38,987 bases of DNA from a virus (Duplodnaviria; Heunggongvirae; Uroviricota; Caudoviricetes): IMG/VR virus record IMGVR_UViG_2879770953_000004; one strand, given 5' to 3'. The notes below the pieces were generated by a model. The model had not been told where the DNA came from. It saw only the letters and a program-made list of their open reading frames with translations, and ran no database searches. The position numbers and the translations under genes were made by a program. Below are positions 1-20,076 of this stretch, piece after piece; position 1 is the stretch's first letter; every line of letters begins with the position of its first letter.

Positions 1-834
1 ATGAGTGATGGGTGGTTAGATTCTACTATGCAAGCAATAAACGATAGGATTAAAAGCCCATTATGGGGATATATCATTCTTGCATGGGTATGGTTCAACT
101 GGCCTAACTTAGCAATGCTCTTTATGAGTGATGCGCCTGTTAAGTTTCGAATAGATTATATACTATCTCAGGAATATTTTTACGCTCATTATCTGCTTGC
201 TCCTGTCTTTTTTGGAGGTGTGCTAGCTGTTATTACTCCTTATGCTCAATGGTTACTTTCTCTTGCTCAAAAATGGGCTACAGATAAACACAATGAAAAT
301 GTTTATCTTACAAAGGAAAAAGAATACTTGGATTCAATCAGGTTAACGGGGTTAAAGGTTCGGGCTGCCAGAGAAGAAGAGAAAGAAAATGCTAAAATTG
401 ATGCTGATATTAAAGCGGAAGTAGAGCGTGGTAAGCGTGAAGAGCTGGTCACAGAAGAGCTACAGACAGAGAAGAAACTGATTCAGAAAGAAATTAATAA
501 TTTAAAGCAGTTAGTATCTAAAGAAAAACAAACCATTGAAAATATCGAGATAGAAAAAGAGAGACTACAGGATTTGATTGTTGCCTCACTTGAGGTAATG
601 GATGATTTCTTTAAAGTTGATAATAGCCGTTCATTACAGCAATTGAAGAGTAGGGTAGAAGAACTTTTAACAGTTTCTGATATTGAAGCTTCTACCATAC
701 GTAACGCGCTACGACAAAAGAAAGAGCTAACTTCATCACAGACAATGAAAATGTTCGATATGGTAGAGGCTAAAATTAAAAAGGAAAAAGAAAAAGGTAA
801 TGATATAGAGTCGGATGAATTAATTAACCAATAA
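1..834 (+). CDS. Hypothetical membrane-anchored coiled-coil protein; may extend upstream of the window
   Basis: 277-aa ORF starting at base 1. The N-terminal third has hydrophobic helices (LWGYIILAWVWFNWPNLAMLF, LLAPVFFGGVLAVITPYAQWLL). The rest is K/E-rich heptad-like sequence. Confidence 0.5.
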   Translation: MSDGWLDSTMQAINDRIKSPLWGYIILAWVWFNWPNLAMLFMSDAPVKFRIDYILSQEYFYAHYLLAPVFFGGVLAVITPYAQWLLSLAQKWATDKHNENVYLTKEKEYLDSIRLTGLKVRAAREEEKENAKIDADIKAEVERGKREELVTEELQTEKKLIQKEINNLKQLVSKEKQTIENIEIEKERLQDLIVASLEVMDDFFKVDNSRSLQQLKSRVEELLTVSDIEASTIRNALRQKKELTSSQTMKMFDMVEAKIKKEKEKGNDIESDELINQ

Positions 835-2656
835 TGCTATGCCTGTAAATAACAGGACATAAACAGGTTAGTACCTATGCAATTTAACGGTATTTTTCCA
901 AGTATCTATGCAATCCTACACAGATTCTATACAGTATCGACATAGCCCCTTTTTATCATAACTTATTGAAATGTATAGAGAATCTGTAAATCCTCTTTTC
1001 AGGGTAAACTATATCGTGTTAGTCGTCCCTCTCCAGACACTACATATAGTGCTATATACAGGGCTATATAACGGTGTCTATGCAGTTGGTCACTATCAAT
1101 ATTCCCTCAAAGTGACTATCAACCTACTTAATAGTTACCTACGTGAAAGTTATGAAGTGATGGTTATAGTTCCTTCGTATCTCCTCTTAAAAAATCACTT
1201 AGAGACATCTTAATCTCTATACAGAATCTACGTAGGTGCTTATTAGTGCGCAAAACAGCTATTATGTTAAAAACATACTGTATACATATCAGTACTGATT
1301 TATAAGGGTTTTGTGTATTGGCTGATAAGAGGCTATACAGCACCTTGAGAGCATGTCTTATAAGTCATTGACACATAAGGTCACAGAAGTTTGTAGCTGT
1401 TACAGAGAAAACTGGATAGGACTTCACAGAACTACAAAATGTTACAGCTATTGATAGGTTAAATCTTCTTGATAGATGCTTTGAAGTGTGATGAAGGTTT
1501 CTTGAGGTGGGGCTAAACAGATATCATGAAGAAAGTCAATAGTTGGTTATAGATATTTTAACTGCTTTTGCAAAGGGAGTGCTATATCGTGAATCTGGGG
1601 TACTTAACAGCCATCAATTGAGTGTAGATATTTTTGAAGATTATCGGTGAAGGGGAATGTAGAGGGGTTACTACGATATTTATAAAAATTTTCAGACTCT
1701 GAAAAGTTACTGTACAGATTTTATACAAACAAAAAAGGACTCCGGTGAAGGAGCCCTCATCAGGTAGATTTTTAATGTGGCTACTACCATCCACCCATAC
1801 CGCACCAAACCTTACCCCACCGAACCGCACCCTACACGACCTTACCTCACCGGACACTGCCATAGAGAGTGTGCTTGGTTGCTTTGGAAGTAAACCTAGT
1901 ACAGTAAGCCATTATACATATCTAGATAGTAACGTCAAGAAACTTTTAACAGGAGGGGTTCCTATGGTCACATATTCCCTCTCTTCCCACTAAGTAAGCC
2001 TTAGCAGCACCTAAGCAACAATTGACTAACAGATTCGGTAGAGTCTATCTCATAGGTCAACTTCATAAACTCAGAGTTAAGTTACCTTGAAAGATTCTAC
2101 CAAGAACTACACAGGTGTTATTTAGTCTAACTGTGAAGGGATATTTAACGGGAGAAGAGATACGATATAACCCGAAGGGAGAGTATCATCTTAACAATTA
2201 TCTTAAGAATAAAAACTGAAAAACTCTTAACAGATAACTACCTAGAAAGAAGGGAACGATAAGACCAGAGGTAGTGACCTGTTAAACAGGCTGTTTCGAA
2301 GTCTCTTAAGAGTCTGTTAAGTAAGGTCATGTGAACAATCTTACCATTTTGTCAATGCCTTTGTCTTTGACCTAAATCAATAAAATGTATCGTTTGATAT
2401 GGTTTTAAGCAAAATAGCTAAAAAATCTTTTTAGAGGGGCGCTTCGCTTGTGTCACCAATATTATTCTTCCCTGTCTAAGGGGGAGGTTACAGAGGTCTT
2501 TCAAACCTCAATAGGCAAACCGAGGAACACGAAGGACGAGGGAAGAAAATCTATTGTGATTACCTTGAACAACGCCTGTAAAGACTGTCAAGAAGGTTGG
2601 TTAAGAATGGCTCTCCCTTTCTGGGGTTATCGCCTTGTATCTTAGTGATGAAGTGG

Positions 2657-3825
<1,169 letters not shown>

Positions 3826-4099
3826 TGGAGCACCTGTGTTGTTCTGAGGTGAGCATATCACCTCTGTTCAGGTGGCCAAATTCAGTGTGCCACTTCATGA
3901 GTCCAGGAAGTTCTCTGTGAAGGGTCTTGTCAGTCCTTTATATTGGGTGATTACAACTCATTGATGAATAAGGGTTTTTCTACAAGCTATCAACTGGATA
4001 GCTTGATGTGACCAACTGAAAGATACAGCTTTCCGGCTTTGTCAAGAGATTTCACTACCCACCAGCTAAAAATATTTCAGAGGCGGGAGTGATTGGAGG

Positions 4100-4288
4100 T
4101 TAGGATGGGTCTTTGTGGTTGTCTTCACGGCCTCTGTCCTTCAGGTCAAACGACCATTCTCGACCGAACAACCGAAACACGATGAACACCCTGACAATGA
4201 CATAGCGAAGTAGTAAGCCTGCGAACAGACCCACACCCCCACCAGCCCATAAATCAGATGACCCCAATTCTTGAGGGAGGTTAAACAT
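4100..4288 (-). CDS. Small single-pass membrane protein (62 aa), function unknown
   Basis: GAAGG Shine-Dalgarno 8 nt upstream of the ATG. One hydrophobic helix (WAGGGVGLFAGLLLRYVIVRVFIVF) and a charged tail. Lies downstream of a strong extended -10 promoter. Confidence 0.35.
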   Translation of the reverse strand: MFNLPQELGSSDLWAGGGVGLFAGLLLRYVIVRVFIVFRLFGREWSFDLKDRGREDNHKDPS

Positions 4289-4371
4289 TCAATGTACCTT
4301 CTGTGTGCAATGCAAAAACATGTGACCAAATACATAGCCACGCTTCATATTTCCCCCTCTCTCATAAACCC

Positions 4372-4380
4372 ATTATACCA
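4372..4380 (-). promoter_or_regulatory. Extended -10 promoter (TGgTATAAT) firing leftward
   Basis: The minus strand reads TGGTATAAT; a perfect TATAAT lies at 4372-4377. Confidence 0.5.
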
Positions 4381-4384
4381 CAAA

Positions 4385-4402
4385 TGTTACGAAATTGTTA
4401 CG
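4385..4402 (+). repeat. Direct repeat TGTTACG x2 with 11-bp period (candidate operator) between divergent promoters
   Basis: TGTTACG at 4385-4391 and at 4396-4402. The second copy runs into the palindrome TTACGTAA. Confidence 0.45.
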
Positions 4403-4409
4403 TAAATGC

Positions 4410-4438
4410 TTGACATTAATCCTTGAAAATGCTAGTAT
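4410..4438 (+). promoter_or_regulatory. Sigma70-like promoter TTGACA-17 bp-TAGTAT firing rightward
   Basis: Perfect -35 at 4410-4415, 17-nt spacer, TAGTAT at 4433-4438. About 50 nt upstream of the ORF at 4491. Confidence 0.5.
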
Positions 4439-4490
4439 TGTATGTATTTAGTTAACAGAATAATAACATTCCATAAGGGTCAGAATATGA

Positions 4491-5042
4491 ATGAACGACA
4501 GAGAATTTCAAAGGTTTCTTGAAGAGAGTAAGGCAAGAAACAAGCACAACTCCTACGCTTACACAAACTCCCCCACCAGCTACGAACTGCCAGCCTTTTC
4601 CAAAACCGAACGTAAAAACATTGAAGCGCTCATTCGTAGCATTACGCCACGGGTAAGACACATGCCAACACGCAAAGAAAAAGAGAACACTTTAAAGACT
4701 TTCCTGATGAGTTTTGATAGCTACGAACAATTACCATCACGAATTGAAGATATTATTATCGGCACTTGTCGCAGCTTTGGAAGAGATAATTATCACCGAA
4801 AAGTTTTCTATTTACTACGAAATATTGACAAGATTAGCTCAAGCACAATAACAAGTTATCTACAGCGTCAAGCGACCCGATTAAGCCATGAGCTACCAAG
4901 TGATAAATATTGCGCTAACTTAGCCACCATTTGCATGAAAGTTATTGAGACAATTAATCATCATGTGGAAGTGGGCAATATTAGCCTTACAACCAGTGAA
5001 CCAGATTTTGAATTTGACCCCTATATTTTGGAGGAATTTTAA
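4491..5042 (+). CDS. Hypothetical protein (183 aa)
   Basis: First ORF of a tightly packed co-directional gene string. No family recognised. Confidence 0.55.
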   Translation: MNDREFQRFLEESKARNKHNSYAYTNSPTSYELPAFSKTERKNIEALIRSITPRVRHMPTRKEKENTLKTFLMSFDSYEQLPSRIEDIIIGTCRSFGRDNYHRKVFYLLRNIDKISSSTITSYLQRQATRLSHELPSDKYCANLATICMKVIETINHHVEVGNISLTTSEPDFEFDPYILEEF

Positions 5043-5043
5043 A

Positions 5044-5322
5044 ATGAATAAACACACTTTGACCCGTATTTCAGAAGAAGCTTTTCACGAGCTTACCCGA
5101 ATTAAACAGACAACTAACCTGCCTCATCAAACTATTATGCAGCTTGCAATTGCTAAAGAGGTCACTGAGTCGGATTTACTGAAATATCCAGTTTCTAAAG
5201 GTCGCAGACACATCAGAATTACTAAGAACGCTCTGGCTACTCTGAAGGAACTGAACAACTTTAAAATTGATATTGCCCGACTATTGAGCATCAAGATTCA
5301 CAAGCTATCGATGGGGGTTTAA
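5044..5322 (+). CDS. Hypothetical small protein, possibly DNA-binding (92 aa)
   Basis: The ATG lies 2 nt after the preceding stop. N-terminus MNKHTLTRISEEAFHELTRIKQTTNLPHQTIMQLAIAKEV has a strand-helix-helix (RHH-like) appearance. This is inference only. Confidence 0.45.
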   Translation: MNKHTLTRISEEAFHELTRIKQTTNLPHQTIMQLAIAKEVTESDLLKYPVSKGRRHIRITKNALATLKELNNFKIDIARLLSIKIHKLSMGV

Positions 5323-5537
5323 TGCTATGCATTACCTTTGAATACCACACAGATAAAATGATTCGCTACATCTCCGACCTCCTGATTAAAGGAAACGGAT
5401 TCGGTGACATCTTTAACTCAAGAGATATTTTCATTAAAGCCATTGGCCCAAATGAAACACTGAAAGCAGCAGTTAAACTGGAATGGTTTGAGCGTCACAA
5501 GATTGAATTAGGTTATTGGGGTGAGGAGGTTTTATGA
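5322..5537 (+). CDS. Hypothetical protein (71 aa)
   Basis: Start overlaps the upstream stop (TAATG). The stop overlaps the next start (ATGA). Confidence 0.45.
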   Translation: MLCITFEYHTDKMIRYISDLLIKGNGFGDIFNSRDIFIKAIGPNETLKAAVKLEWFERHKIELGYWGEEVL

Positions 5538-5821
5538 AACCTTGGCATGAAGATGTTAGGCGATATTTTACAGAACACCTTACCTATGATGAATCCAGTG
5601 ATTCCCTGTGCTGGTCTGATGGAGAGTCGGTCACGATAAATACCGACGACTACGGCAACAAAACATTTAATATAGGTCGATACACATTCTATGTGAAATA
5701 TGTTGTCTGGTTCCTTTATCATGGCTATCAATCCAATAAGCAAATTATCCATCGAAATGGTAACAGAGCCGATACCAGACCAAAAAATCTTATGCAAGTC
5801 CGAGACTTTAAGAGAAATTAG
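5534..5821 (+). CDS. HNH_3-like small nuclease/homing-endonuclease-like protein (95 aa)
   Basis: Motif VVWFLYHGYQSNKQIIHRNGNRADTRPKNL resembles the ...IDHxNGNxxDNRxxNL signature of phage HNH proteins. Confidence 0.5.
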   Translation: MKPWHEDVRRYFTEHLTYDESSDSLCWSDGESVTINTDDYGNKTFNIGRYTFYVKYVVWFLYHGYQSNKQIIHRNGNRADTRPKNLMQVRDFKRN

Positions 5822-5972
5822 AAAAACAGCTTCTCAGACGCTCTCAATCGCATTCTAACGCAAAAAACTACCTTATTTTAGGGTGGACCACTGTACAGGC
5901 TACCCCTGAAAAAGACTGTTTAGCTCGTTACAGAGCGATTGAGGAGGTCTGGTAAAAAGGAGATTTTAGGAA

Positions 5973-6296
5973 ATGAGAGAATATGAATTACAGATTTTCG
6001 TTGATAGCGACACTGCTATGATGGTGCAAAGCTTCATTGATGCAGGTGTGGAAATTGATTTTGATAAATTACTAAAGCTGATGGCTGATAATGCAGAAAA
6101 CATCTCTGACTTTATTCAGTCGGTGGAGTTTAACGAGCCTCGAATGATGTTACCAATTACAGACAGTAATATGAAAAGATTGGTTATTGAGCAAACGAAC
6201 AAATACAGTATTTCCCCAGAGCAATTTTTGAAAGGTGCTGTGACAATCCTGTACAGCGATAATATTTTGGTTACGGATTCCGTGAGGGTTCACTAA
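5973..6296 (+). CDS. Hypothetical acidic protein (107 aa)
   Basis: AAGGAG-type RBS (aaaaggag) upstream. No family recognised. Confidence 0.5.
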   Translation: MREYELQIFVDSDTAMMVQSFIDAGVEIDFDKLLKLMADNAENISDFIQSVEFNEPRMMLPITDSNMKRLVIEQTNKYSISPEQFLKGAVTILYSDNILVTDSVRVH

Positions 6297-6373
6297 TGGG
6301 CTTAATAATTACTTGGACGTTGCTTGGCTTATTTGTTGGTTGCTGGGTGGGTAACACAGTAAATAAGAATTGA
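6296..6373 (+). CDS. Possible 25-aa hydrophobic peptide, translationally coupled (TAATG)
   Basis: MGLIITWTLLGLFVGCWVGNTVNKN read directly from the sequence. Too short for the ORF track. Speculative. Confidence 0.25.
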   Translation: MGLIITWTLLGLFVGCWVGNTVNKN

Positions 6374-6396
6374 TGTTATCAATATGTTAAAAGCTG

Positions 6397-6425
6397 TTGA
6401 CAAATAACCTTAAGCATGAGATGAT
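6397..6425 (+). promoter_or_regulatory. Sigma70-like promoter TTGACA-17 bp-GATGAT
   Basis: Perfect -35 at 6397-6402 but a weak -10. It precedes a ~340-nt untranslated stretch before the ORF at 6769. Confidence 0.35.
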
Positions 6426-6768
6426 GGTAATAGGGGGAGCAACTCTTCCTGAATTAAACTATTAATCATTCTACATCAATGATAGTTATTCTGAGTTGGA
6501 AAGGTGCAATGCTTTTCGTCATGGCCTATTTAGCCCACACTAGATAGGCTATCTCAAAAAGTCTTTGTTCATTCGTTATTGAATCCTTTGGATGTTCTTT
6601 AATTTCTTCACCTTAGCCCTTTATAGCGTTTTAGTTATCTAGGGCTTTTTCAGCTTTTAAAAAGCGCACTTGGCAAACCGCCTTTTAAGTCTCTTCTAAG
6701 TTCGTAGGCTGTCAGGTGTGCTTTTTAAAAACTGAAACATAAATTATCTTAGAAGAGGAAAAATAATA

Positions 6769-7473
6769 ATGTCTATCCGTGATGAACATGAAATGATTAT
6801 CGAAAACAGACCAAGTGCACTTGATATTCACGAATTAAGTTTGCGTGAATCTTTTGATAGAGCTTGGCGGGAATCACACGAAGTAAATAAAGGTCCATAT
6901 ATTCCACCAGAACCACTTGAGATTCCAAGAGTTGAAATTGATTTTTCTATGAACGAACGGTGTGAACTTGATTTGAAGTTGAAGCTACAACGCCGATATT
7001 TCCAAGCTATTAAAGACTCTCAAGAAGCAATGAGAAGTGTTTACGAGAAAATTCAGTCCAAGCTTGAAGACGAAATTGACGAAATGGCTATTTTGATGGA
7101 GCTTCAAACCAATTCTTATGCTTATTTCTCTCGACTAGACCGTGACGGTTGGGGGTATGACCCTGTAGAGATTGGTAAAGTGATTGCAGATTTACCAGAA
7201 GGTCAAAGAGTTGTTCGTACAGAAAGAGCTGTCAGAGCACCACATCGACTGTCTCTAATTGTTGCTGATAAATCACAAGCTGAGCTTGAAGAAATTGCAA
7301 AAGAGAAACTGATGAAAGCAAGAGAAAATGAGATTAATTTGCTGAAATCAAGACTGGCTAAGCTGATTAGTGACCATCAAGCGCTGGCTAAGGAGTACCG
7401 TCAAGAGTTGGCACAGATTATCAGCTTCAATGATTTTCTGAGTGTTCCACGAGAATTTAGCAAGGCTGTTTGA
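6769..7473 (+). CDS. Hypothetical protein with coiled-coil C-terminus (234 aa)
   Basis: GAGGAA RBS upstream. No family recognised. Confidence 0.55.
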   Translation: MSIRDEHEMIIENRPSALDIHELSLRESFDRAWRESHEVNKGPYIPPEPLEIPRVEIDFSMNERCELDLKLKLQRRYFQAIKDSQEAMRSVYEKIQSKLEDEIDEMAILMELQTNSYAYFSRLDRDGWGYDPVEIGKVIADLPEGQRVVRTERAVRAPHRLSLIVADKSQAELEEIAKEKLMKARENEINLLKSRLAKLISDHQALAKEYRQELAQIISFNDFLSVPREFSKAV

Positions 7474-7496
7474 TTATGAATTAAAAGAGGTGATTA

Positions 7497-7709
7497 ATGT
7501 TTGAAGAACGTTTAGAGACTATTCGGTCTGTTTGCGAAAGACTCCAGCTACAACCAAATAGACAAAAGCTACGAATTAAGAATAACCGTCATTACATCAC
7601 CTCACACAAACCAAAAACACGCAAGATTCCAAAGTGGTGTATTGACCGTATTCCTTCTGATGCTCAAATTATAGGTGAAACGGAACTACATTATCTTGTC
7701 CGACATTAA
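7497..7709 (+). CDS. Hypothetical basic protein (70 aa)
   Basis: AGAGGTG RBS upstream. K/R-rich. Confidence 0.45.
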   Translation: MFEERLETIRSVCERLQLQPNRQKLRIKNNRHYITSHKPKTRKIPKWCIDRIPSDAQIIGETELHYLVRH

Positions 7710-7783
7710 AAAAGAATTGGTTGGGTAAATACGGTGAGAGATTATCGAGTGACATCGGTAGTTTCTCCCTTTTTTGTATGTGT

Positions 7784-7850
7784 GCTACGTAAAATCTGTA
7801 AAGTTAATACCCACACTGAAAAATAGAATTTACGTACAACACGCTTAAAG
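7784..7850 (+). promoter_or_regulatory. Leader cassette L1: 8-bp inverted repeat (TACGTAAA / TTTACGTA) bracketing a TAGAAT -10-like box, followed by CACGCTTAA
   Basis: Arms at 7786-7793 and 7829-7836; TAGAAT at 7824-7829. It is a paralogue of the cassette at 10020-10093. Confidence 0.4.
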
Positions 7851-7863
7851 AGGTGAAATATGA

Positions 7864-9930
7864 ATGAGCAGATTTACAGTTGATAGTTTTATCGTTGAGC
7901 TAGGCTTCAATGAAAACGTTATTAAGGGACTGCAAAGAGTTGAAAAGGCAGCTTTGCAGTCAGCACAAAGAATTGAACGTAATTTGAATAGAGCGTTTAA
8001 AGTTAACCCAAAGAGCATGGATAAGGATTTAACAGCCTCTTTGGGAAATATGGAAAAGAAGATTAACCAGACTTTTAATAAGCTGCAGGAAAGAGCCAAA
8101 TCTACGAAGGTCTTTAAGTTCAAAACTCAGGTTGAAGAAACTGTTAAAGCAGCAAGACAGCCACGAATCAGCGGAAGCAGAGCAATTACAGCAGCGCATA
8201 GCGTGAATATGAGCAAGCTTCGTGACTTTAATCCTATGCTTGAGAAGTATTTTAAGAGCCAATATTACAGCTTAAGCAGTAAATCCAAGACACTTGGAAA
8301 CGAAGCTTTTAATCGTGAGTTAGCAAAGTTAAATCAGTCTCTTCGTGAAACACTTTCTAAGTTTAATAAGACCACCAGCAAAAATAATCACAGTGAAAAT
8401 GCTTCGAATGGTCTGGATGTATTAGCTACAAGTGCAATCAAAGCAGGTACAGCCATTTATAGTTTTCAGACAGCCTTAGAAGCTTATAGGAAGATTATGG
8501 AGATTGGTCTGAAAAAAGAAGCATCACAACGAGCGGCACAATTCGTTTTAGGTGATGAAGGTGCTAAACGAGCTACAGAATTTGTTAAGAATCTTGCTGA
8601 TAGTAGTGGTGTAGACCAGATTGAAACATTAAGCAGTTTTGCTAAGTTTTCCGCTGGTGCTGGTGATATGAATGCAGACCAGAAAGAATCCTTATTTTCT
8701 AATGTGATTGGTACATCCAGATTAATGGGGCTAAGCACCGATGAAATTAACGGGATTTTAAAAGCTTTCGAGCAGATGGCATCTAAAGGAAAGATTCAGG
8801 CTGAAGAATTACGCGGTCAGTTAGGGGACAGAATGGCAGGTGCTTTCCAGTTATTTGCCAGAAGCCTTGGAATGACTACGGAAGAATTAGACAAGGCCAT
8901 GAAAGACGGTAAGGTTCTTTCTAAAGATGTTCTCCCTAAAGTATCCGCTGAAATGGGAAGGATGATTGATAAAGCTAGTGGATGGGAAAAGATTATTAAC
9001 TCTACTCAGACGCAGTTAGGCCGCTTAAGTAATTCATGGAACAATAATCTGGCCTTAATGTTCGATGGTTCACAGGAAGGTCTTGTAGATTTTACAAGGT
9101 CACTGACTAATTTACTTAATTCACTGGGTGGTCAATCTAAAAATCTTGGTGAACATTTTGGCGACTTGATGAAAAGCATGTCAAACGGTATTGATGATTT
9201 AACCACGATTAGCTACCGAGTGCAGGGATTCTTTGACAGAGTGACCCTTGCTTACAGAGAATTAAATGACACTCAAAAAGCTGTAGCTGATGGTATCGCA
9301 AATGGCCTGTTAAGTGCATTAAAGGGACTTGCTGGTATTGTCGCTGTAAGGTCTGGTATTGGTGCTGTAGGTGGTATCTGGAACTTAATTAGGGCTATTT
9401 CCACGCTTGGAAATGTCGCAAATACAGCAGCGGGAAGGATTAATTCACGTTCCGGTAGTGTTGAAGGTGGTAAAGGAAAATTATCTGTAGCTGATGCAAT
9501 TACCAGAGTAATGATTGTCGGTATGACGACGGATGTGATTAACTCCATTGTTAAACCACTCTATGAACGTCAGATGAGTAAGTCAGATAATCCGATTGAT
9601 AAAGTTGTAAGGTCAAAGGTGGAACCCACAGACCAGGCATTAACTGGTGACATGAACTCTTTAGCCGCTGTTTTATGGGCTATGGTTCATGGCAAATCAA
9701 AAGATGTTCCACAGTTTTCACCTGAAGCATTAAATAATCTGAAAGGTCGAGTGGAAACATTCACACAAGATTTAAAGGTTATCAAGCCGTCAGTAAATAT
9801 TCAGCCTCAGACAATCAATATCACAACTCAGACGGTACTTGATGGAAAGGTTATTGATGAAAGAACCACATCGCATATTAATCGTATGCAGGAAGATACC
9901 TTGATTAGCTCAGCTTACCCAGAGGAATAA
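7864..9930 (+). CDS. Phage tail tape measure protein (TP901-type core)
   Basis: 688 aa. Helical N-terminus, core ...LMGLSTDEINGILKAFEQMASKGKIQAEELRGQLGDRMAGAFQLFARSLGMTTEEL..., and a glycine-rich hydrophobic segment (GLAGIVAVRSGIGAVGGIWNLI). Confidence 0.75.
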   Translation: MSRFTVDSFIVELGFNENVIKGLQRVEKAALQSAQRIERNLNRAFKVNPKSMDKDLTASLGNMEKKINQTFNKLQERAKSTKVFKFKTQVEETVKAARQPRISGSRAITAAHSVNMSKLRDFNPMLEKYFKSQYYSLSSKSKTLGNEAFNRELAKLNQSLRETLSKFNKTTSKNNHSENASNGLDVLATSAIKAGTAIYSFQTALEAYRKIMEIGLKKEASQRAAQFVLGDEGAKRATEFVKNLADSSGVDQIETLSSFAKFSAGAGDMNADQKESLFSNVIGTSRLMGLSTDEINGILKAFEQMASKGKIQAEELRGQLGDRMAGAFQLFARSLGMTTEELDKAMKDGKVLSKDVLPKVSAEMGRMIDKASGWEKIINSTQTQLGRLSNSWNNNLALMFDGSQEGLVDFTRSLTNLLNSLGGQSKNLGEHFGDLMKSMSNGIDDLTTISYRVQGFFDRVTLAYRELNDTQKAVADGIANGLLSALKGLAGIVAVRSGIGAVGGIWNLIRAISTLGNVANTAAGRINSRSGSVEGGKGKLSVADAITRVMIVGMTTDVINSIVKPLYERQMSKSDNPIDKVVRSKVEPTDQALTGDMNSLAAVLWAMVHGKSKDVPQFSPEALNNLKGRVETFTQDLKVIKPSVNIQPQTINITTQTVLDGKVIDERTTSHINRMQEDTLISSAYPEE

Positions 9931-10019
9931 ACAATGTTAGAACTACTAATATTTATTGCCACACATGGCAATCTATTAATCTTTATCTAGTATGACGATT
10001 CAACTATGAATAGTCGAAT

Positions 10020-10093
10020 GCTACGTGATTTCTTCTGAACAGATACCAACATCAAAAATTAGATTTCACGTAGCTCACGCTTAACAGAATAGG
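10020..10093 (+). promoter_or_regulatory. Leader cassette L2: 9-bp inverted repeat (GCTACGTGA / TCACGTAGC) bracketing TGAACA-18 bp-TAGATT, followed by CACGCTTAACAGAATA
   Basis: Arms at 10020-10028 and 10066-10074. The central part aligns with L1 (ATACC.ACA...AAAAAT.AGA.TT.ACGTA..CACGCTTAA). Confidence 0.4.
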
Positions 10094-10103
10094 AATAACA
10101 ACA

Positions 10104-10877
10104 ATGTTTGACACAAAGCAAATTAGATACTCAGGTAAAGATGGTATCTATTTTCACCTTAGAGATAATGTAGAATCTTTTCTTGCCTTAACAGCTACTG
10201 AACAGATGGACTATGACTCACCGATGATGGTGACAACTCAGGCTATGCAATCGGGGCAAACTATCACTGATAATGTTCAGAGAGCACCTAAGACCATCTC
10301 TATTAGCGGTGTTGTAGTGGTTGATTCGACGGGTTCAGTTCTATTAACCAGACAGGGGCAACTTGTAGAAACCTTTATTTCTACGGTTGAACAATGGCGA
10401 GACCAGAAGCAAATCATCACTATTGTTTGTAGAGATGGAATAGCTATCACTGATAGTATCATTACTCAGTTTAAAGCGAGTAAAGAGCATACCATTGCTA
10501 ACGGTCTTCGTATTCAGATGACCTTCCAAGGTGTAGAGTTTCGTTCAATCGTAGGTCAAACTGATATCTCGGCTGCTACTGGAAAGACAGCTACTACAAA
10601 TGATGGTGGTGCTACCAGCAAAAAGAATACAGGGAACACTACGACAAGCTTAGGTAACGGTATGTTGATGTGTCAGGAGCTATATAATCGCTCTACGAGT
10701 GAACTTTCTAATGAGCAACTTCAAGCCCGTATCAATTGTGGTAGGAATGTCAGAGTTAAGAACGGAAAAAGCACCTTCTCAGATGCCGCTAATGAGCAAG
10801 CTTCAAAGGTGCTTAATAATGCTGGTACAGGTAGTACTTTGAAGAAGTTTTCGGTGAATCCGAATAAGCGCTACTGA
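10104..10877 (+). CDS. Hypothetical tail-associated protein (257 aa)
   Basis: Lies immediately after the tape measure gene. Has a weak pattern resemblance to post-tape-measure tail-tip/baseplate initiator proteins (..ISISGVVVV.....IVCRDG....[11 protein letters not shown]). The C-terminus is low-complexity. Confidence 0.4.
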
Positions 10878-11713
10878 CGATAGAATCTCAACTATATGAT
10901 AACCTCATCAACATCTATTAAACCCCTCTCAGTGACTTCAGAAAGCGACTGTATAGCCTCTGTAACGTTGTCTGAGGGGTTTTCTGTTATTGGTAGGTCA
11001 ATTACCTTACCGTTGTGAAAAGTCACTTTACATCGACGTTTAGCAGTATTTAAAACGACCTCTTTAACAGCACTTTTGATTATCAGTTGTGCTTCAATCC
11101 TTCCCGCCTTTGTAGTCAAGTCACAATCAGACAAACACCCCACATCAATAGATTTAAGGCGTTGTGTCTCCTTCTCGATATCCGCATCAACCTGTGATAG
11201 CTCATTCTTTAGTTGTTTTAGCTTGCTGGTAATAGCTGACAAATCTTCAATTTCAAGTGATAGCTGTACCAGCTTCTCAATATTGCTTGAGATGTGTTCA
11301 CGGTGTAACTTCAGTGTATCGATGGTATTCGTCGTATCGCTATCAAATCGGTCAAGACGAGATAGCAGGGTAAGCAATGTACCATCGGTTTGCTTACGTG
11401 ACAGCCCTTTAGCACTACAACGGTTTTCATTACGAAGGGGACAGCGATAAATCCCGTTTCTTGTATCGCTAAAGCCTGTGATAATCAGAGCATGACCACA
11501 TTCAGAGCAACGGATAACACCTTTGAAAAGATTCACAGCCATTGGCTTATCTGAAGCAGGTTTTCTACCGTAACGAGCATATGATAGTTGCTGGACTTTG
11601 TAGAATGTTGTTTCATCTATAATTGCAGGATAATAATCAGCTATCTCTTCACAGCCTTTAGGTGTGAAGTAACCAATTACAGAGCGATTTTTCAGAAGGT
11701 CTTGTACTGAGGT

Positions 11714-11718
11714 TTGAC
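11714..11718. repeat. IS2 target-site duplication TTGAC (left)
   Basis: Identical pentamer at 13050-13054. Confidence 0.9.
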
Positions 11719-11729
11719 TGGATTTGCCC

Positions 11730-12635
11730 CTATATTTCCAGACATCTGTTATCACTTAACCCATTACAAGCCCGCTGCCGCAGATATTCCCGTGGCGAGC
11801 GATAACCCAGCGCACTATGCGGATGCCATTCGTTATAATGCTCGAACGCCTCTGCAAGGTTCTTTGCTGCCGTTAACCCGTCTGGTTTGGGCATGATACT
11901 GATGTAGTCACGCTTTATCGTTTTCACGAAGCTCTCTGCTATTCCGTTACTCTCCGGACTCCGCACCGCCGTGTTCTTCGGTTCAAGTCCCAACATCCGG
12001 GCGAACTGGCGTGTTTCATTAGCCCGGTAGCATGAACCATTATCCGTCAGCCACTCCACTGGAGACGACGGAAGATCGTTGCCGAAGCGGCGTTCCACCG
12101 CTCCCAGCATGACGTCCTGTACTGTTTCACTGTTGAAGCCGCCGGTAGTCACCGCCCAGTGCAGTGCCTCACGATCACAGCAGTCCAGCGCGAACGTGAC
12201 ACGCAGTCTCTCTCCGTTATCACAGCAGAACTCGAACCCGTCAGAGCACCATCGCTGATTGCTTTCTTTCACGGCCACTCTGCCTGTATGTGCCCGTTTC
12301 GATGGCGGTACAGCAGGTTTTCGCTCAAGCAACAGCGCATTCTGGCGCATGATCCGGTAAACACGTTTGGCATTGATCGCAGGCATACCATCAAGTTCTG
12401 CCTGTCTGCGAAGCAGCGCCCATACCCGACGATAACCATACGTGGGCAGCTCTCCGATAACATGGTGTATACGGAGAAGCACATCCGTATCATCAGTGTG
12501 ACGACTGCGGCGGCCATCCATCCAGTCATCGGTTCGTCTGAGAATGACGTGCAACTGCGCACGCGACACCCGGAGACAACGGCTGACTAAGCTTACTCCC
12601 CATCCCCGGGCAATAAGGGCGCGTGCGCTATCCAC
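11730..12635 (-). CDS. insD: IS2 OrfB (InsD) transposase
   Basis: 301-aa DDE transposase matching IS2 InsD as remembered. Confidence 0.95.
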
Positions 12636-12958
12636 TTTTTTGCCCGTCCATATTCAACGGCTTCTTTGAGGAGTTCATTTTCCATCGTTTTCTTGCCGAG
12701 CAGGCGCTGGAGTTCTTTAATCTGCTTCATGGCGGCAGCAAGTTCAGAGGCAGGAACAACCTGTTCTCCGGCGGCCACAGCAGTAAGACTTCCTTCCTGG
12801 TATTGCTTACGCCAGAGAAATAACTGGCTGGCTGCTACACCATGTTGCCGGGCAACGAGGGAGACCGTCATCCCCGGTTCAAAGCTCTGCTGAACAATTG
12901 CGATCTTTTCCTGTGTGGTACGCCGTCTGCGTTTCTCCGGCCCTAAGACATCAATCAT
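12593..12958 (-). CDS. insC: IS2 OrfA (InsC)
   Basis: [56 protein letters not shown]... matches IS2 InsC as remembered. An A6G slippery run lies at 12635-12641. Confidence 0.95.
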
Positions 12959-13049
12959 CTGTTCTCCAATGACTAGTCTAAAAACTAGTATTAAGACTAT
13001 CACTTAAATAAGTGATACTGGTTGTCTGGAGATTCAGGGGGCCAGTCTA

Positions 13050-13054
13050 TTGAC
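13050..13054. repeat. IS2 target-site duplication TTGAC (right)
   Basis: Identical pentamer at 11714-11718. Confidence 0.9.
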
Positions 13055-13852
13055 CAAATGAACCCGCTTTATATTGGTTAAGCGTCTGGTGACCTTCATC
13101 ATTAAGAGTCCTGACAATCTCCCAGATAGACTTACCCTCTAACCGTAGCTGAAAGCACCTCTTCACAGTCTCCACTTTCTCAGGGATTACAGAGAAGCTT
13201 TTACGGTCATCATTAAGCTTAAGCCATGCAGGACAACGTTTAGAAATCTTGATACCTTCAGAGATGAGTTCTTTTTTACGGTTCCATGCAGCTTGTATAC
13301 GCTCAGACTTCCTCAAACTCTCCTCATGCGACCGCTGCATTATCAGAATGCTTTTAATCAGAGCTAACGGGTCTTTAAGAGATTCTCGTGTGTAATGTTC
13401 ACCATCGGACAAGGTGACCACATCTACACCAGAGCGAAGAATGTTTCTGAGTAGCTCACTTGCTTGGTCTACATCTTGACGTGACAGACGGTCAAGAGAT
13501 TCTATCAAGAGCGTATCACCAGCTTTAACAAGCCCTTTCTCGATAGCGGTTAAAAAGTCACCTAAGCCACCTTTCAAGTGCTTACCAGTGAACCCACTCA
13601 CCCCCAAATCACGGAAGGATAAATCTTGGTCAAGGTAGTACTCAGGATGAGCCTTAAGCCAGTCATTAACCATCTTAGACTGTCTGCGTAGTGAGTCGCC
13701 TTTGGCTTGTCGCTCAGAACTGAATCTGATGTAGCTGATTACACGTTTCATTCTTTACCACCATAAAAACTAATAGCAGTTGGGCTTGTTATGAGGATGC
13801 TTCATCCGAATCATCTACCAACCCCTAGATTGTATCGCTTTAGGTGGTGTAT

Positions 13853-14275
13853 TTAAACGTGTCTGATGAAAATCACCCGATTAACGCCGCGCTGATGTAA
13901 ACCGCGATTAAGCGTTTGTTCCTCTTCCCCTTTGGCGAAAAACTGTGGATGGCGGACTTCCACACCATAATTAAATTCGCCAGGGAGAGAATCGAGAAAA
14001 TGCCAAAGCGCAGGCAGCTCCCGTGGGCCGAATGTGGCAGGCAGTTGCAGCCAGTATTGCCCAATGCGCGGAGCCAACGGTGACATGCGGGTCAAAAATT
14101 CAGTCACTAAATCATCGCAATGTCGTAATGCTGCCTGATGCGAAATGGTCGCCGGAAACTTAAAACAGAAGCGGAAGTCATCTGTGGTCTGTTCACGCCA
14201 GCGCAGGACAACCTCGGGTTTCGGCAGGGCGTAAAGCGTGGTGTTGCCCTCCACGCAGTTAACATGACGGGTATT
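13853..14275 (-). pseudogene. yecE: Internal fragment of yecE (DUF72 family), truncated at both ends by mobile-element junctions
   Basis: Translation ...NCVEGNTTLYALPKPEVVLRWREQTTDDFRFCFKFPATISHQAALRHCDDL...LHQRGVNRVI matches the middle of E. coli YecE as remembered. Similarity is lost after RGVNRVI (~13870) and upstream of ..RH.NCVEG (~14275). Confidence 0.6.
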
Positions 14276-14311: not shown

Positions 14312-15583
14312 TCACTTTGGTGACCATGGGACATAATCTGCCAGCTTCTGATTCAGCATTGCGATCTGTTCTGCATTACTGTCAGTCATCCATGCTCCGT
14401 ATACATTGAACACCATCTGGGCACTTGCATGGCCCATCTAGCTGGCAATGAAGCTTGGGTTTGCTCCGGCAGATAATGACCAGCACGCATAAGTGTGTCG
14501 TGACTGGTATGCTTTCCGGTGCCTGATGCCCGCACGCTTAATGGCTGTTTCCCATGAGTCGCCAATGGAATCTACCTTGTAGATAAAACCTACCTGTTTG
14601 CTTTTTCTAACCACCTGGGGGTTAAATACGAAAGTACATTCATGATTCACTGAACGTCCATATTCACGTAGTTGAACCTTGATGTGGTGCTGCTTACCCA
14701 GTCTTGTCATTTCAGCCTGATTTTTCAGGACACTGATAGCGGGCTGGATAAGATGCACAACCCTGTTTGTACTTGCTTCAGTTTTAGGTAGAGTGAACTC
14801 ACCGAGTTTCGTATAATTGCGCCTGATAGTAATAGTTCCTGCTTTCATATCGATATCTTCCCAGGCCAGGGAGACCAGTTCACCGTGACGCATTCCTGTG
14901 TACACAGCCAATGACCACAGGTTTTTCGTCTGCTGATGTCGGCAAGCATCTATCAGGCGAATAAATTCGTCACGAGTTAACGGATCTGGCTCTGCCCTGG
15001 CTCTTTTAAGAGGCTTAATTCCCTGGAAGGGATTTGCTTCTAAGTAACCGTGATCTGCAGCAAACTGAAACATTCCAGCGATTGTCGTCATGTAATAATT
15101 TACAGTAACGACGCTCCGTCCTTTTGCTGCTGCTTTGTTTTTCGTTGAATTCTGATACCCGGTCAGCAAATCTTTCCTGATATACAGCAATTCCTCTTTG
15201 GTTACCGATGACACCAGTCTGCCGCCTCCAATTTTCGGAACCATCGTTCTTGCAACGGATTCATAGCGATTGAATGCATTTGCAGAGATTTCCATTCGTT
15301 TCAGATCCAGCCACTTTTCTTCAAGTTCCTTCACCGTAATTTCTTTTTTACTTACCCCAAAAGCCTGAAGGTTAGGGGAGTCAGGGAACTGTGCAGCATA
15401 ATCAAAGCTTCCTGTGCGGATGGCAAAACATACCGATGTCCGCAGTTCCCCGGCGATCTTCCTGTTCTTGGCAGTGTCAGGGACACCAAGATTTTCCCTG
15501 ACACGTTTACCTTTAAAATTAAACCAGATGCGTAATGTGCCGCCGTGGTTTTCGACGCCTGTTGGATATTTGACTTTATCCAT
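14312..15583 (-). pseudogene. int: Phage tyrosine integrase with an in-frame TAG removing the catalytic-Tyr segment
   Basis: The ORF ends ...SAGANPSFIAS at TAG 14438-14440. The same frame continues MGHASAQMVFNVYGAWMTDSNAEQIAMLNQKLADYVPWSPK to TGA at 14312-14314. The R (TGMRHGEL) and SRHTYA boxes lie upstream of the stop. Confidence 0.85.
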
Positions 15584-15706
15584 CGATACCTCCAGACGCC
15601 CAAGAGCGATACGAGCTTACATATTTCATGATATTAAATCACTGAGGTAGCCTGAGTTTAACGGACACTCCTTCCTGAAATAGAATGGCATCAGAAGGAG
15701 CTAATA

Positions 15707-16009
15707 ATGAGCAGAAAAACCCAACGTTACTCTAAAGAGTTCAAAGCCGAAGCTGTCAGAACGGTTCTTGAAAATCAACTTTCGATCAGTGAAGGCGCTT
15801 CCCGATTATCTCTTCCTGAAGGCACTTTAGGACAATGGGTTACCGCCGCCAGAAAAGGGCTCGGTACTCCTGGTTCCCGCACGGTGGCTGAACTGGAATC
15901 TGAAATTCTGCAACTGCGTAAGGCGTTAAATGAAGCTCGCCTTGAGCGAGATATATTAAAAAAAGCAACAGCGTATTTTGCACAGGAGTCGCTGAAAAAT
16001 ACGCGTTAA
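15707..16009 (+). CDS. IS600 OrfA
   Basis: MSRKTQRYSKEFKAEAVRTVLENQLSISEGASRLSLPEGTLGQWV... An A7G slippery run lies at 15958-15965. Confidence 0.9.
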   Translation: MSRKTQRYSKEFKAEAVRTVLENQLSISEGASRLSLPEGTLGQWVTAARKGLGTPGSRTVAELESEILQLRKALNEARLERDILKKATAYFAQESLKNTR

Positions 16010-16044
16010 TCGAACAATGGCGACAACAATTTCCCATTGAAGCG

Positions 16045-16863
16045 ATGTGTCAGGTATTTGGTGTATCCAGGAGCGGTTATTACAACTGGGTACAGCATGA
16101 ACCCTCAGACAGAAAACAAAGTGATGAGCGGCTAAAACTGGAGATTAAGGTGGCACATATCCGCACTCGCGAAACATATGGAACCCGGCGGCTCCAGACG
16201 GAGCTGGCAGAGAATGGCATCATCGTTGGTCGTGACCGACTGGCACGTCTTCGTAAGGAGCTGAGGCTACGCTGTAAGCAGAAACGCAAGTTCAGAGCGA
16301 CTACGAACCCGAACCACAATCTGCCAGTTGCGCCAAATCTGCTGAACCAGACGTTCGCTCCTACAGCACCAAATCAGGTCTGGGTGGCGGACCTGACGTA
16401 TGTTGCCACACAGGAGGGATGGTTGTACCTCGCTGGCATCAAAGATGTTTATACGTGCGAAATTGTCGGCTACGCCATGGGAGAGCGCATGACAAAAGAG
16501 CTGACAGGTAAAGCCCTGTTTATGGCGCTCAGGAGCCAGCGCCCACCTGCCGGGCTAATCCACCACTCTGATCGAGGTTCACAGTACTGCGCATACGATT
16601 ACCGGGTCATACAGGAGCAGTTTGGTCTGAAAACATCAATGTCGCGTAAAGGTAACTGTTACGACAACGCTCCGATGGAAAGCTTCTGGGGAACGCTGAA
16701 AAATGAGAGCCTGAGCCACTATCGTTTTAATAACCGGGATGAAGCCATCTCAGTAATACGGGAATACATTGAGATTTTCTACAATCGTCAGCGTCGTCAC
16801 TCTCGTCTGGGGAATATCTCCCCGGCAGCCTTCAGGGAAAAATATCATCAGATGGCTGCTTAA
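16045..16863 (+). CDS. IS600 OrfB frame (DDE transposase)
   Basis: VWVADLTYV...HHSDRGSQYCA...CYDNAPMESFW core. Confidence 0.9.
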   Translation: MCQVFGVSRSGYYNWVQHEPSDRKQSDERLKLEIKVAHIRTRETYGTRRLQTELAENGIIVGRDRLARLRKELRLRCKQKRKFRATTNPNHNLPVAPNLLNQTFAPTAPNQVWVADLTYVATQEGWLYLAGIKDVYTCEIVGYAMGERMTKELTGKALFMALRSQRPPAGLIHHSDRGSQYCAYDYRVIQEQFGLKTSMSRKGNCYDNAPMESFWGTLKNESLSHYRFNNRDEAISVIREYIEIFYNRQRRHSRLGNISPAAFREKYHQMAA

Positions 16864-16906
16864 AAAAAGAACAAATGGTAGTGTCCGCTATTGCCAGTAC
16901 ACCTCA

Positions 16907-17008
16907 CTTATCGACGACGAGCAGTTTGATGAAACCAATATTGTGCGCGGACTGCCTGTTCCTGGTGGTCGGTTGGGGATAAAAATCACAGAGCTGGAGT
17001 GTGCATGA
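16907..17008 (+). pseudogene. 3' remnant of a RusA-like Holliday junction resolvase gene, truncated by IS600
   Basis: ...LIDDEQFDETNIVRGLPVPGGRLGIKITELECA resembles the RusA C-terminus (..[32 protein letters not shown]). ATGA stop/start overlap with the next gene. Confidence 0.5.
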
Positions 17009-17694
17009 ATAACCAGTATTTACAGTTTGTTCGTGAGCAGCTCATTATCGCCACCGCTGATTTGAGTGGGGCGACAAAAGGTCAGCTTGAAGCCTGGCAG
17101 GGGAATGCCATGTTCGATACAGGGCGTTACAGGCGTAAAAAAATCCGGTACCGCGATGAGGTGACCGGAAAAATGATAACGCGGGATAATCCACCAATCC
17201 CGGGAAAACAATCACTGGCGAAGGGGGCGTCAATTCCTCTGGTCAGTCAGGTTGCGTTTTCGACATCATCGTGGCGGCGGGCTGTTCTGTCTCTTGAAGA
17301 GCACCATAAAGCCTGGTTGTTGTGGTGTTACAGCGGAAGTATTTGCTGGGAGTATCAGATCACCATAACCCACTGGGCGTGGGAAGAGTTTAAGGCTCAT
17401 TCTGGCACTAGGAAAATTGCAGAGAAAACACAGGAACGCCTGAAAAAATTAATCTGGCTGGCGGCGCAGGCGGTAAAAGCAGAACTTTTTGGTGGGGAAG
17501 GTTATGAATATCAGGAGCTGGCATTACTGGCGGGAGTAACAACCAAAAACTGGTCCAAAACATTTACTGGTCACTGGGTTGTAATGAAACACATTTTTCA
17601 CCGACTGGATAGTGAGGCTTTATTGTTTGTGATGAGAACACGTTTAGAACAAAAAGCGGCATTTTCAAAGCAAAGTATTGCAAAAGTAGATTAA
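17005..17694 (+). CDS. Late-gene antiterminator Q-like protein
   Basis: Position after ninR-type rusA and before a pR'-like promoter, terminator and tRNA cluster. I recall this family (MNNQYLQFVREQL...) being annotated as antitermination protein Q in O157-type lambdoid prophages, but this is unverified. Confidence 0.55.
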   Translation: MNNQYLQFVREQLIIATADLSGATKGQLEAWQGNAMFDTGRYRRKKIRYRDEVTGKMITRDNPPIPGKQSLAKGASIPLVSQVAFSTSSWRRAVLSLEEHHKAWLLWCYSGSICWEYQITITHWAWEEFKAHSGTRKIAEKTQERLKKLIWLAAQAVKAELFGGEGYEYQELALLAGVTTKNWSKTFTGHWVVMKHIFHRLDSEALLFVMRTRLEQKAAFSKQSIAKVD

Positions 17695-17870: not shown

Positions 17871-17946
17871 GGCCCTTTAGCTCAGTGGTGAGAGCGAGCG
17901 ACTCATAATCGCCAGGTCGCTGGTTCAAGTCCAGCAAGGGCCACCA
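17871..17946 (+). tRNA. tRNA-Ile2 (anticodon CAU, ileX-like; reads AUA after lysidine modification)
   Basis: Cloverleaf folded by hand. Near-identical to E. coli ileX as remembered. CCA is encoded. Confidence 0.85.
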
Positions 17947-17947
17947 A

Positions 17948-18021
17948 CCACCACTAGCTCATCCGGATAGAGCATCAACCTTCTAAGTTGACGGTCCGAG
18001 GTTCAAGTCCTCGGTGGTGGG
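17948..18021 (+). tRNA. tRNA-Arg (anticodon UCU, reads AGA)
   Basis: Hand fold: acceptor CCACCAC/GTGGTGG, D-arm GCTC/GAGC, anticodon stem TCAAC/GTTGA with loop CTTCTAA, T-arm CGAGG/CCTCG with TTCAAGT loop. No encoded CCA. Confidence 0.75.
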
Positions 18022-18026
18022 CCTGC

Positions 18027-18102
<76 letters not shown>

Positions 18103-18105
18103 TAT

Positions 18106-18180
<75 letters not shown>

Positions 18181-18879: not shown

Positions 18880-20076
18880 TTATGACCCCTGCGGGGTATA
18901 AAAAGTCCCGTCGCGCATCATGGCGAACAGAACGTCGCAGCGTCGTCTCGCCAGGGCGATAAGCGCCTGATTGTGTCGTTTTCCCTGACTCATTTTGCGG
19001 GTGTAGTAAGCCCTGGAGAGCGGATCCCTGAGCGCGGCGAAGGCCGACAGGAACAACGCCCGTTTGAGAGCTTTATTACCCCGTCGCGAGGGATGCTCAC
19101 CGCGTATTGACGAGCCGGCTCGCCGAGTTACCGGCGCAAGGCCAGCATAAGCAGCGAGATGTGCGGCAGAGGCGAAGGCGCGGCAGGCGACCTCGGTGAG
19201 GAGTCTGGCTGCGGTCCTGACACCGACTCCGGGCATACTGGTCAGGACCGGGTAAAGAGGGTGAGCAAGAACTCGCTGTTCTACCTCAAGCGCCACCTCG
19301 TCTCTTTGCTTACGCAGCGTGATGAGCTGGAGTGCCAGACGTGGCAGTACTACGGCAGCGGCATTCGTGCCGGGAACGACGACGGTTTGTTCGGCCAGTG
19401 CCTGAGCTATGTCTGCTGCAAGGCGTTTACCCAGACGAGGCGCAAGTTTGCAGAGCTGGGCTGCCAGCTTCTTCTCACCCAGCGAAGCGAGTTTTTCTGG
19501 TGAGGGATATCGCTGGAGAAGATCGAGTACCGCCGGGTGCTCAAGTCTCGGACCGAGAACGCGCTCCAGTGCCGGATGTATCTGGGTCAGAAGGCCGCGG
19601 ATACGGTTGCTGGCCTGCGTTGTCTGTGCGGCAAGATCATCATCGAAGCCGCAGAGCATGGAGAGTTCGGCGATTTGCTCGTCAGCCAGTTTCAGCGTGC
19701 GTAGCGCGTGAGGCAGGGTACGGGCAGCTTCGGCAATGATGGCAGCGTCACGAGCATCAGTTTTAGCTTCACCGGCGTGTAAGTCGGCTATGCGGCGCAT
19801 GGCCAGTCCAGGGAGGTATCCGACAAGGACTCCTTCTGAGCGGGCAACGGCGACAGGTAACGCACCGATGGTAGCTGGCTGATCAACAACCAGCAGTATC
19901 TGACCATGTTGTTTCAGGTCAGATATTAGCGACCTGAGTTTGTTTTCGTCGTTGGGTAATGCTTTATCGAACAGGCGTTTACCTGAACGATTAATGGCAA
20001 CAGCGTGATGCGTATCTTTACCGACATCAATGCCGATAAAGACCTGGACGGATTCGCAATCGCTGGATTCGGTCAT
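18880..20076 (-). CDS. IS110-family transposase/recombinase (398 aa)
   Basis: N-terminal RuvC-like DEDD motif (FIGIDVGKDTHH...VVDQP...TDARDA). C-terminal Tnp domain (SMPGVGVRTAARLL...AGLAPVTRRAGSSIRG). Confidence 0.85.
   Translation of the reverse strand: MTESSDCESVQVFIGIDVGKDTHHAVAINRSGKRLFDKALPNDENKLRSLISDLKQHGQILLVVDQPATIGALPVAVARSEGVLVGYLPGLAMRRIADLHAGEAKTDARDAAIIAEAARTLPHALRTLKLADEQIAELSMLCGFDDDLAAQTTQASNRIRGLLTQIHPALERVLGPRLEHPAVLDLLQRYPSPEKLASLGEKKLAAQLCKLAPRLGKRLAADIAQALAEQTVVVPGTNAAAVVLPRLALQLITLRKQRDEVALEVEQRVLAHPLYPVLTSMPGVGVRTAARLLTEVACRAFASAAHLAAYAGLAPVTRRAGSSIRGEHPSRRGNKALKRALFLSAFAALRDPLSRAYYTRKMSQGKRHNQALIALARRRCDVLFAMMRDGTFYTPQGS

Follow-up and report, generated by a model that had tools for sequence, protein, structure and literature searches.

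Large serine recombinases of the A118, phiC31 and Bxb1 family bind the half-sites of their attachment (att) sites with a recombinase domain and a zinc-ribbon domain, a coiled coil mediates synapsis, and excision by serine integrases needs a directionality factor. A serine integrase also integrates PLE, a Vibrio cholerae element that is a satellite of ICP1, a virulent myovirus. In Shigella genomes, the inactivation of genes by the insertion sequence (IS) IS2 is widespread. The host gene yecE has been listed among the genes disrupted by prophage integration (PMC3603311) and has been described as a site of Stx2a phages (PMC6256406). Here we analyze a stretch of viral DNA of 38,987 nucleotides, IMG/VR record IMGVR_UViG_2879770953_000004, which is referred to throughout, at its full length, as the window. 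It contains an island seated within yecE whose serine integrase gene is interrupted by IS2. The best explanation, which we hold with high confidence, is a simple and recent IS2 hit at residue 234/235 of the integrase of this yecE island, most likely a matter of neutral decay.

The anatomy of the insertion was taken from a direct sequence read of window positions 10700-14100 and from a script, and the two agree on the following features.

10892-11718, minus strand: 3' portion of the integrase gene (codons 235-507 and the stop), encoding recombinase domain (second half), zinc ribbon, putative coiled-coil region and C-terminal tail
11714-11718, unstranded: left copy of the target-site duplication TTGAC (from the sequence read and the script; a single TTGAC is present in the empty-site contigs L004-L007 described below)
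11719-13049, minus strand: IS2 of the IS3 family (1331 bp), whose transcription is co-directional with that of the integrase gene
11719-11760: IRR, the other terminal repeat of IS2
12635-11730, minus strand: IS2 orfB (rve), from a profile match
12958-12593, minus strand: IS2 orfA, from an HTH_Tnp_1 profile match
13049-13009: IRL, the orfA-proximal terminal repeat of IS2
13047-13751, minus strand: 5' portion of the integrase gene (234 codons), encoding catalytic domain, alpha-E helix and recombinase domain (first half)
13050-13054, unstranded: right copy of the target-site duplication TTGAC (from the sequence read, the script and the empty-site contigs)

The original prediction placed an IS2 of exactly 1331 bp at 11719-13049 between two copies of TTGAC, and the sequence read and the script concur. 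The element begins TGGATTTGCCCC and finishes GGCCAGTCTA, and the 5-bp duplication is exact on both sides. S. flexneri plasmids carry elements, annotated "IS3-like element IS2 family transposase", to which it is 100% identical over all 1331 bp. Its minus-strand proteins match the Pfam profiles HTH_Tnp_1 (E 2e-19) and rve and rve_3 (E 1e-18), and the overlap of orfA and orfB carries the A6G -1 frameshift motif AAAAAAG at window positions ~12641-12635. The terminal inverted repeats are imperfect, with ~29 of 42 positions matching across one gap (ends TGGATTTGCCCC and TAGACTGGCCCCC). In its length, orfA/orfB arrangement with A6G motif, imperfect repeats, 5-bp duplication and precise empty site in relatives, the insertion resembles other gene knock-outs by IS2 and differs from them in nothing of the mechanism; what is particular is the target, the integrase of a little-known yecE island.

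Excising IS2 together with one TTGAC joins 11718 to 13055 and yields a minus-strand reading frame of 1524 nt, or 507 codons, with a single terminal stop. The junction of this restored open reading frame (ORF), which the script confirmed as it had been proposed, reads ...KAGSFGQ|TSVQDLLKNRS.... The restored protein is identical at 507 of 507 residues to WP_024235211.1, an intact RefSeq protein of E. coli ZH177, in whose genome the uninterrupted gene adjoins yecE'-yecD-aspS. The chance of a flanking 5-bp match was estimated at 1/1024, and that of a 507-codon open frame in DNA of 38% GC at ~1e-15.

That the interrupted gene encodes a serine integrase, as had been proposed from reading the sequence, is supported by the domains of the restored protein. 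Resolvase (PF00239, residues 4-160, E 4e-20), Recombinase (PF07508, residues 190-276, E 9e-16) and Zn_ribbon_recom (PF13408, residues 296-349, E 5e-7) were found by Pfam search, all three above their curated cut-offs and contiguous; a failure to find such contiguous domains had been named beforehand as the outcome that would refute the proposal, and it did not occur. In an alignment with the TP901-1 integrase and gamma-delta resolvase, R9, S11 (nucleophile position) and D87-R88-x-x-R91 coincide with the catalytic motifs, YIRFSSERQ being aligned with YTRVSTTNQ of TP901-1 and DRLSR with DRLGR of gamma-delta. Residues 239-454 align with the DNA-binding region of the A118 integrase (PDB 4KIS), a PDB match with an E value of only ~3e-4; the zinc ribbon shows a four-cysteine pattern (C303, C306, C325 and C333), and the coiled-coil stretch of A118 aligns with the corresponding region of the restored protein. 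A single-sequence AlphaFold2 model was too weak overall to be relied on (mean pLDDT 41), and just two long helices in it, at residues 343-386 and 393-421, reached a pLDDT of ~70-78. The restored gene is thus a predicted large serine recombinase (serine integrase). It shares with the A118, TP901-1, phiC31 and Bxb1 integrases the domain order of catalytic domain, recombinase domain and zinc ribbon, into which a helical hairpin may be inserted, and with large serine recombinases in general the Ser/Arg/Asp catalytic motifs, a 2-bp crossover and imperfect inverted arms in attP. It differs from the known members in its distant sequence and in an integration site that lies within the yecE coding sequence.

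The gene itself has a GC content of ~38-40%. An NCBIfam scan of the island proteins, in which the tape-measure protein was the only other one with a named family, gave it no more than a weak XisF-type match, and a close relative was absent from a collection of 50,697 phage records, where the best match, at 36% identity, was to the YbcK-type recombinases of lambdoid coliphages. When 5,426 complete E. coli genomes were searched with the restored gene and its flanks, 198 carried at least 80% of the query; among the matches listed, the gene is annotated as a "recombinase family protein" and is flanked on one side by a "phage baseplate protein" or hypothetical gene, on the other by a truncated DUF72 (yecE) gene. 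The junction between the integrase gene and IS2 was found in none of these 5,426 genomes, a collection without Shigella. The orthologous gene was hit independently at three other positions, by IS2 in E. coli EC45, by IS1203 in 08-3914 and by IS3 in GPEC1292, which makes inactivation of this integrase recurrent.

From 104 to 20877, the window matches CP026098.1 with zero mismatches over 20.8 kb. Since the next accession, CP026099, is the plasmid of S. flexneri FDAARGOS_74, we infer that the window represents the chromosome of this strain or a near-identical one. Four draft contigs (L004-L007), which like CP026098.1 came from a look-up of a neighboring 257-amino-acid protein, pass directly from 11718 to 13050, overlapping by 5 bp, and so have one TTGAC and no IS2. 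These contigs differ from the window by 1-5 changes (single-nucleotide polymorphisms or single gaps) over 10.4 kb. Because they share with it the IS911 boundary at ~3761/3900, the junction of yecE with a tyrosine integrase gene and the IS600 boundary at 15639, they belong to the same lineage. E. coli ZH177 likewise has a single TTGAC and an uninterrupted gene. Among 25 contigs that were read, 24 have the 507-amino-acid gene intact.

The transposition had been called simple and probably recent, and both descriptions hold up against these strains lacking IS2. Simplicity is evident from the exact duplication, the collinear flanks and the precise empty site in sister isolates. Recency is evident from the gene halves, which show no difference from an intact allele, from the 100% identity between this IS2 and other copies, and from the few changes that separate the sister contigs from the window. 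Since the empty-site contigs share IS911, the IS2 insertion is also younger than the IS911 insertion. Taken together, the sequence comparisons show a simple and recent IS2 event within the S. flexneri lineage, after the arrival of IS911. By being present or absent, this IS2 provides a clean and recent marker in S. flexneri.

On the coding strand, the break reads GGT CAA TAG, and the upstream fragment stops after Q234; the TAG is formed by the last three bases of IS2 (13047-13049). The original prediction had IS2 separating the catalytic domain from the zinc-ribbon and coiled-coil part. This needs a small correction, as the break at residue 234/235 falls within the recombinase domain (Pfam 190-276) and not at a domain boundary. 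It follows that the gene would yield at most a 234-residue fragment, in which the catalytic domain is followed by just half of the recombinase domain. The 3' remainder of 273 codons, with the rest of the recombinase domain, the zinc ribbon and the putative coiled coil, is without a start of its own. Because the DNA-binding and synapsis domains are needed in large serine recombinases, both the 234-residue fragment and the start-less remainder should be inactive. An exact-sequence look-up of the 234-amino-acid N-terminal fragment returned no record, probably since such fragments are annotated as pseudogenes.

The att junctions were defined by alignment to yecE of MG1655, and involve two further features.

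13845-13895, unstranded: integrase-proximal att junction in yecE, with the crossover at 13869-13870 (AA on the plus strand, TT in the sense of yecE)
13869-14262, minus strand: internal fragment of yecE (DUF72), gene nt 86-479, with the serine-integrase island on one side and a second inserted element on the other

A junction had been expected at ~13870. On the integrase side, the junction ends with yecE nt 479, equivalent to position 13869 of the window and the point where identity to yecE starts, and the crossover dinucleotide occupies 13869-13870, in agreement with that expectation. The far junction, seen both in CP026098.1 and in four E. coli genomes, lies 99 bp outside the left end of the window and begins with yecE nt 478. 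Exactly 2 bp, TT, are common to the two yecE junctions. The attB site is ...GGGTGATT-TT-AGACAGCC..., and the reconstructed attP reads ...GGTGTATTTAGACCTTGCTAATC-TT-CATCAGACACGTTTAAATACACC..., its junction also being given as ...CTTGCTAATC-TT-CATCAGACAC.... The phage-type arm on the island side of the integrase-proximal junction is TAAATACACC, and the inverted arms of the reconstructed attP, GGTGTATTTA and TAAATACACC, agree at 17 of their inner 24 positions. The two sites have only the central TT in common, which is the signature of a serine integrase. Between the att junction and the start codon of the integrase gene lies a stretch of 48 bp (13778-13825) that some E. coli islands also have and that is missing in ZH177; it falls outside the ~50-bp att core, probably in the promoter region of the integrase gene.

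Both att junctions are intact in FDAARGOS_74, and IS2 is for this reason the only visible lesion in the recombination apparatus. This strengthens the reading that the island is locked in place, and it is plausible that IS2 has indeed locked it. No recombination directionality factor was recognized among the island ORFs by Pfam, PHROGs or NCBIfam. The integrase and its att sites are an uncharacterized addition to a known family, and a full serine integrase with exact attB, attP, attL and attR sites and a TT crossover in yecE is a candidate recombination tool.

The course of events is short. An 11.4-kb integrative element in S. flexneri yecE received a copy of IS2 at codon 234/235 of its large-serine-recombinase gene. 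A staggered 5-bp cut followed by repair produced the TTGAC duplication in one step, without rearrangement. Neither piece of the integrase would then bind and synapse att sites, and the element would no longer excise or reintegrate by its own enzyme despite its intact att junctions. Most likely this is neutral decay in an IS-rich Shigella genome and not a selected "lock". Neutral IS expansion is the simplest reading because the window is full of decay, including IS911, IS600, an IS110-family element, a second IS2 and a premature stop in a tyrosine integrase gene. For an IS-rich Shigella, the event itself is ordinary IS2 pseudogenization, and the knock-out as such matters little: it adds another IS-mediated Shigella pseudogene, in a gene family already present in RefSeq. 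More unusual is the island in which the gene resides.

Several points weigh against this account. The loss of integrase function is deduced from domain architecture, and a related recombinase elsewhere in the genome, beyond the view that the window affords, could act in trans. The element may already have been immobile before the IS2 hit; no directionality factor was recognized, and IS911 was already in the island. The sample of 25 contigs favors long contigs and hence uninterrupted genes. Finally, the independent IS insertions into the orthologous gene in three E. coli strains could indicate selection for immobilization.

This last point is the basis of the alternative that survives best, in which loss of the integrase fixes a useful island, for example an anti-phage one, and the insertions are kept by selection and not by drift. 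In its favor are the repeated hits at other positions and the other island genes, which are intact in S. flexneri with ORF lengths the same as in the E. coli copies. Set against them, the known hits number just four, compared with ~198 E. coli genomes that carry the locus, and the gene is intact in most sampled Shigella relatives. The target is moreover AT-rich, and low-GC DNA may, as we assume, attract insertions of the IS3 family. We therefore regard selected grounding as unlikely.

Much less probable still is a split gene that remains functional, either through expressed and complementing fragments (from an outward promoter of IS2 and an in-IS GTG at 11755) or through precise excision of IS2 as a reversible switch. 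A 287-codon ORF from the GTG inside the IS2 end does read in frame into the 3' fragment, and IS2 is oriented in the direction of the gene, but the break lies inside the recombinase domain and in no linker. We know of no large serine recombinase split in such a way, and precise IS excision is very rare. That IS2 instead marks a rearrangement (IS2 x IS2 recombination, or a composite or replicative event) by which two unrelated gene fragments were joined, with the restored ORF a coincidence, can be set aside as having next to no likelihood: a second IS2 does lie 24.7 kb away in direct orientation with 1 of 1240 positions differing, but the 5-bp repeats are identical, the joined halves equal a natural intact protein at every residue, and the flanks are collinear with ZH177 and the four empty-site contigs.

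The island as a whole comprises the following features in addition to the integrase gene.

1-13868, unstranded: body of the yecE island, which starts 99 bp to the left of the window
2636-3897: IS911, 99.6% identical to S. flexneri copies, in a non-coding part of the island
7864-9930: tape-measure protein gene
10104-10877: gene for a homologue of Dit-like/tube-initiator proteins

It is 13,967 bp long with its two IS elements and 11,369 bp without them, has a GC content of ~38%, and is ordered as p277, ~2 kb free of ORFs, IS911, small ORFs of unknown function, an HNH endonuclease gene, the tape-measure gene, the Dit-like gene and the integrase gene. Across five genomes, the distance between the yecE halves ranges from 11.4 kb (S. 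flexneri, without IS) to 13.4 kb. The conserved core extends from p184 to the integrase and includes the genes for the tape-measure protein and the tube-initiator homologue. The left-hand cargo is variable: the present island has p277, ZH177 has a Dam methylase, and O157:H7 Rafaela_II has a 306-amino-acid protein together with an AP2/ERF-type regulator. With Pfam, PHROGs and NCBIfam, only the tape-measure protein, the Dit-like protein, the HNH endonuclease and the integrase were recognized, and no capsid, portal, terminase, lysis, repressor or replication gene was. PADLOC found no known defense system among the island proteins. By its size and gene content, the yecE island is an 11.4-kb element and not a prophage of normal size. 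In a scan of IMG/VR, its protein p234 matches seven contigs of 20-55 kb. An identification with SpLE2 of O157 Sakai was rejected, as SpLE2 lies between cobU and yeeB. In the literature, no description of a yecE serine-recombinase element or of an E. coli satellite with a serine integrase was found.

Like the Stx2a and other lambdoid prophages of yecE, the island disrupts this host gene, and a tyrosine-integrase element occupies the same gene in the window from 14263. The island differs from these prophages in its recombinase family, in its size of just 11-13 kb and in its position, which is at yecE nt 478-479 as compared to ~nt 85 for the tyrosine-integrase element.

Three parts of the island are related to virulent Felix-O1-like myoviruses (Ounavirinae). 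The Dit-like protein, which matches 299 phage records, is 69-73% identical in amino acids to the protein encoded directly after the tape-measure gene in SUSP1/2 and Sf14, and the tape-measure protein is 38-50% identical to those of such phages. In phage Bas63, gp18 is the tube initiator (PMC12609058), and by the position of its gene the Dit-like protein probably corresponds to it. The third part is a piece of ~95 bp (1763-1856) in the ORF-free stretch of ~2 kb. In 115 Ounavirinae phages, intergenic DNA of the early/replication region matches this piece at 75-93% identity; its counterpart in SUSP2 is at 28987-29081, between gp040 and the DNA ligase gene. The core of this segment is an array of ~12 tandem ACCNN pentamers (1794-1853), in which ACC is conserved and NN is free, preceded by a hairpin. 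The pattern occurs at one place only in the window, and none is expected in 100 shuffles. It could represent iterons, a rut site, or an array bound by protein or RNA. The island shares nothing with the 88.7-kb genome of SUSP2 beyond the tape-measure gene, the Dit-like gene and the ~95-bp segment. One E. coli copy of the island (L009) has a separate repeat in its ORF-free region, at 12672-12853, where a 95-bp unit occurs 1.9 times with an 82% match.

This pattern of sharing suggests a satellite of, or an interference element against, Ounavirinae, and is offered as a lead and not as a result. In its fuller form, the proposal is that the yecE element may be self-contained, mobilized by its serine integrase, and able to parasitize or block Felix-O1-like myoviruses, as opposed to being a decayed prophage; judged on the sequences compared, we consider this possible but doubtful. 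Besides the shared sequences, the conserved core with its variable cargo and the GC content of ~38% speak for it. PLE provides an analogy for the island, as distinct from the IS2 event. Both are small chromosomal elements with a large serine integrase, both are free of capsid, terminase and replication genes recognizable by profile search, and both have sequences related to a virulent myovirus group, which here is Ounavirinae. They differ in that the yecE island carries tail genes, the tape-measure and tube-initiator homologues; to our knowledge, such genes are not known from PLE. No satellite of Felixounavirus or Ounavirinae was found in the literature, and if the proposal is true, this would be the first satellite or interference island found for Felix-O1-like phages. 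Such phages are used in phage therapy and biocontrol, on which the finding would bear. The IS hits here and in three E. coli strains would then have grounded a satellite or tail-assembly-interference island.

The remainder of the window, from 14263 to ~37700, is taken up by a second element inserted in the same yecE gene at ~nt 85, with the following features.

14438-15583: tyrosine integrase gene of the second element, with a premature stop (IAS*MGH) before the catalytic Tyr
~15640-16915: IS600
~17005-17694: Q antiterminator gene
17871-18177: four tRNA genes
18880-20076: IS110-family transposase gene

It also carries lambda-type head-completion genes, and is a decayed lambdoid prophage at the known Stx2a phage site. 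Beyond it lies the second IS2 (37748-38987), which is cut by the end of the window. Homologous recombination between the two IS2 copies would remove ~26 kb, with the yecE fragment, the lambdoid remnant and the upstream portion of the integrase gene among the losses.

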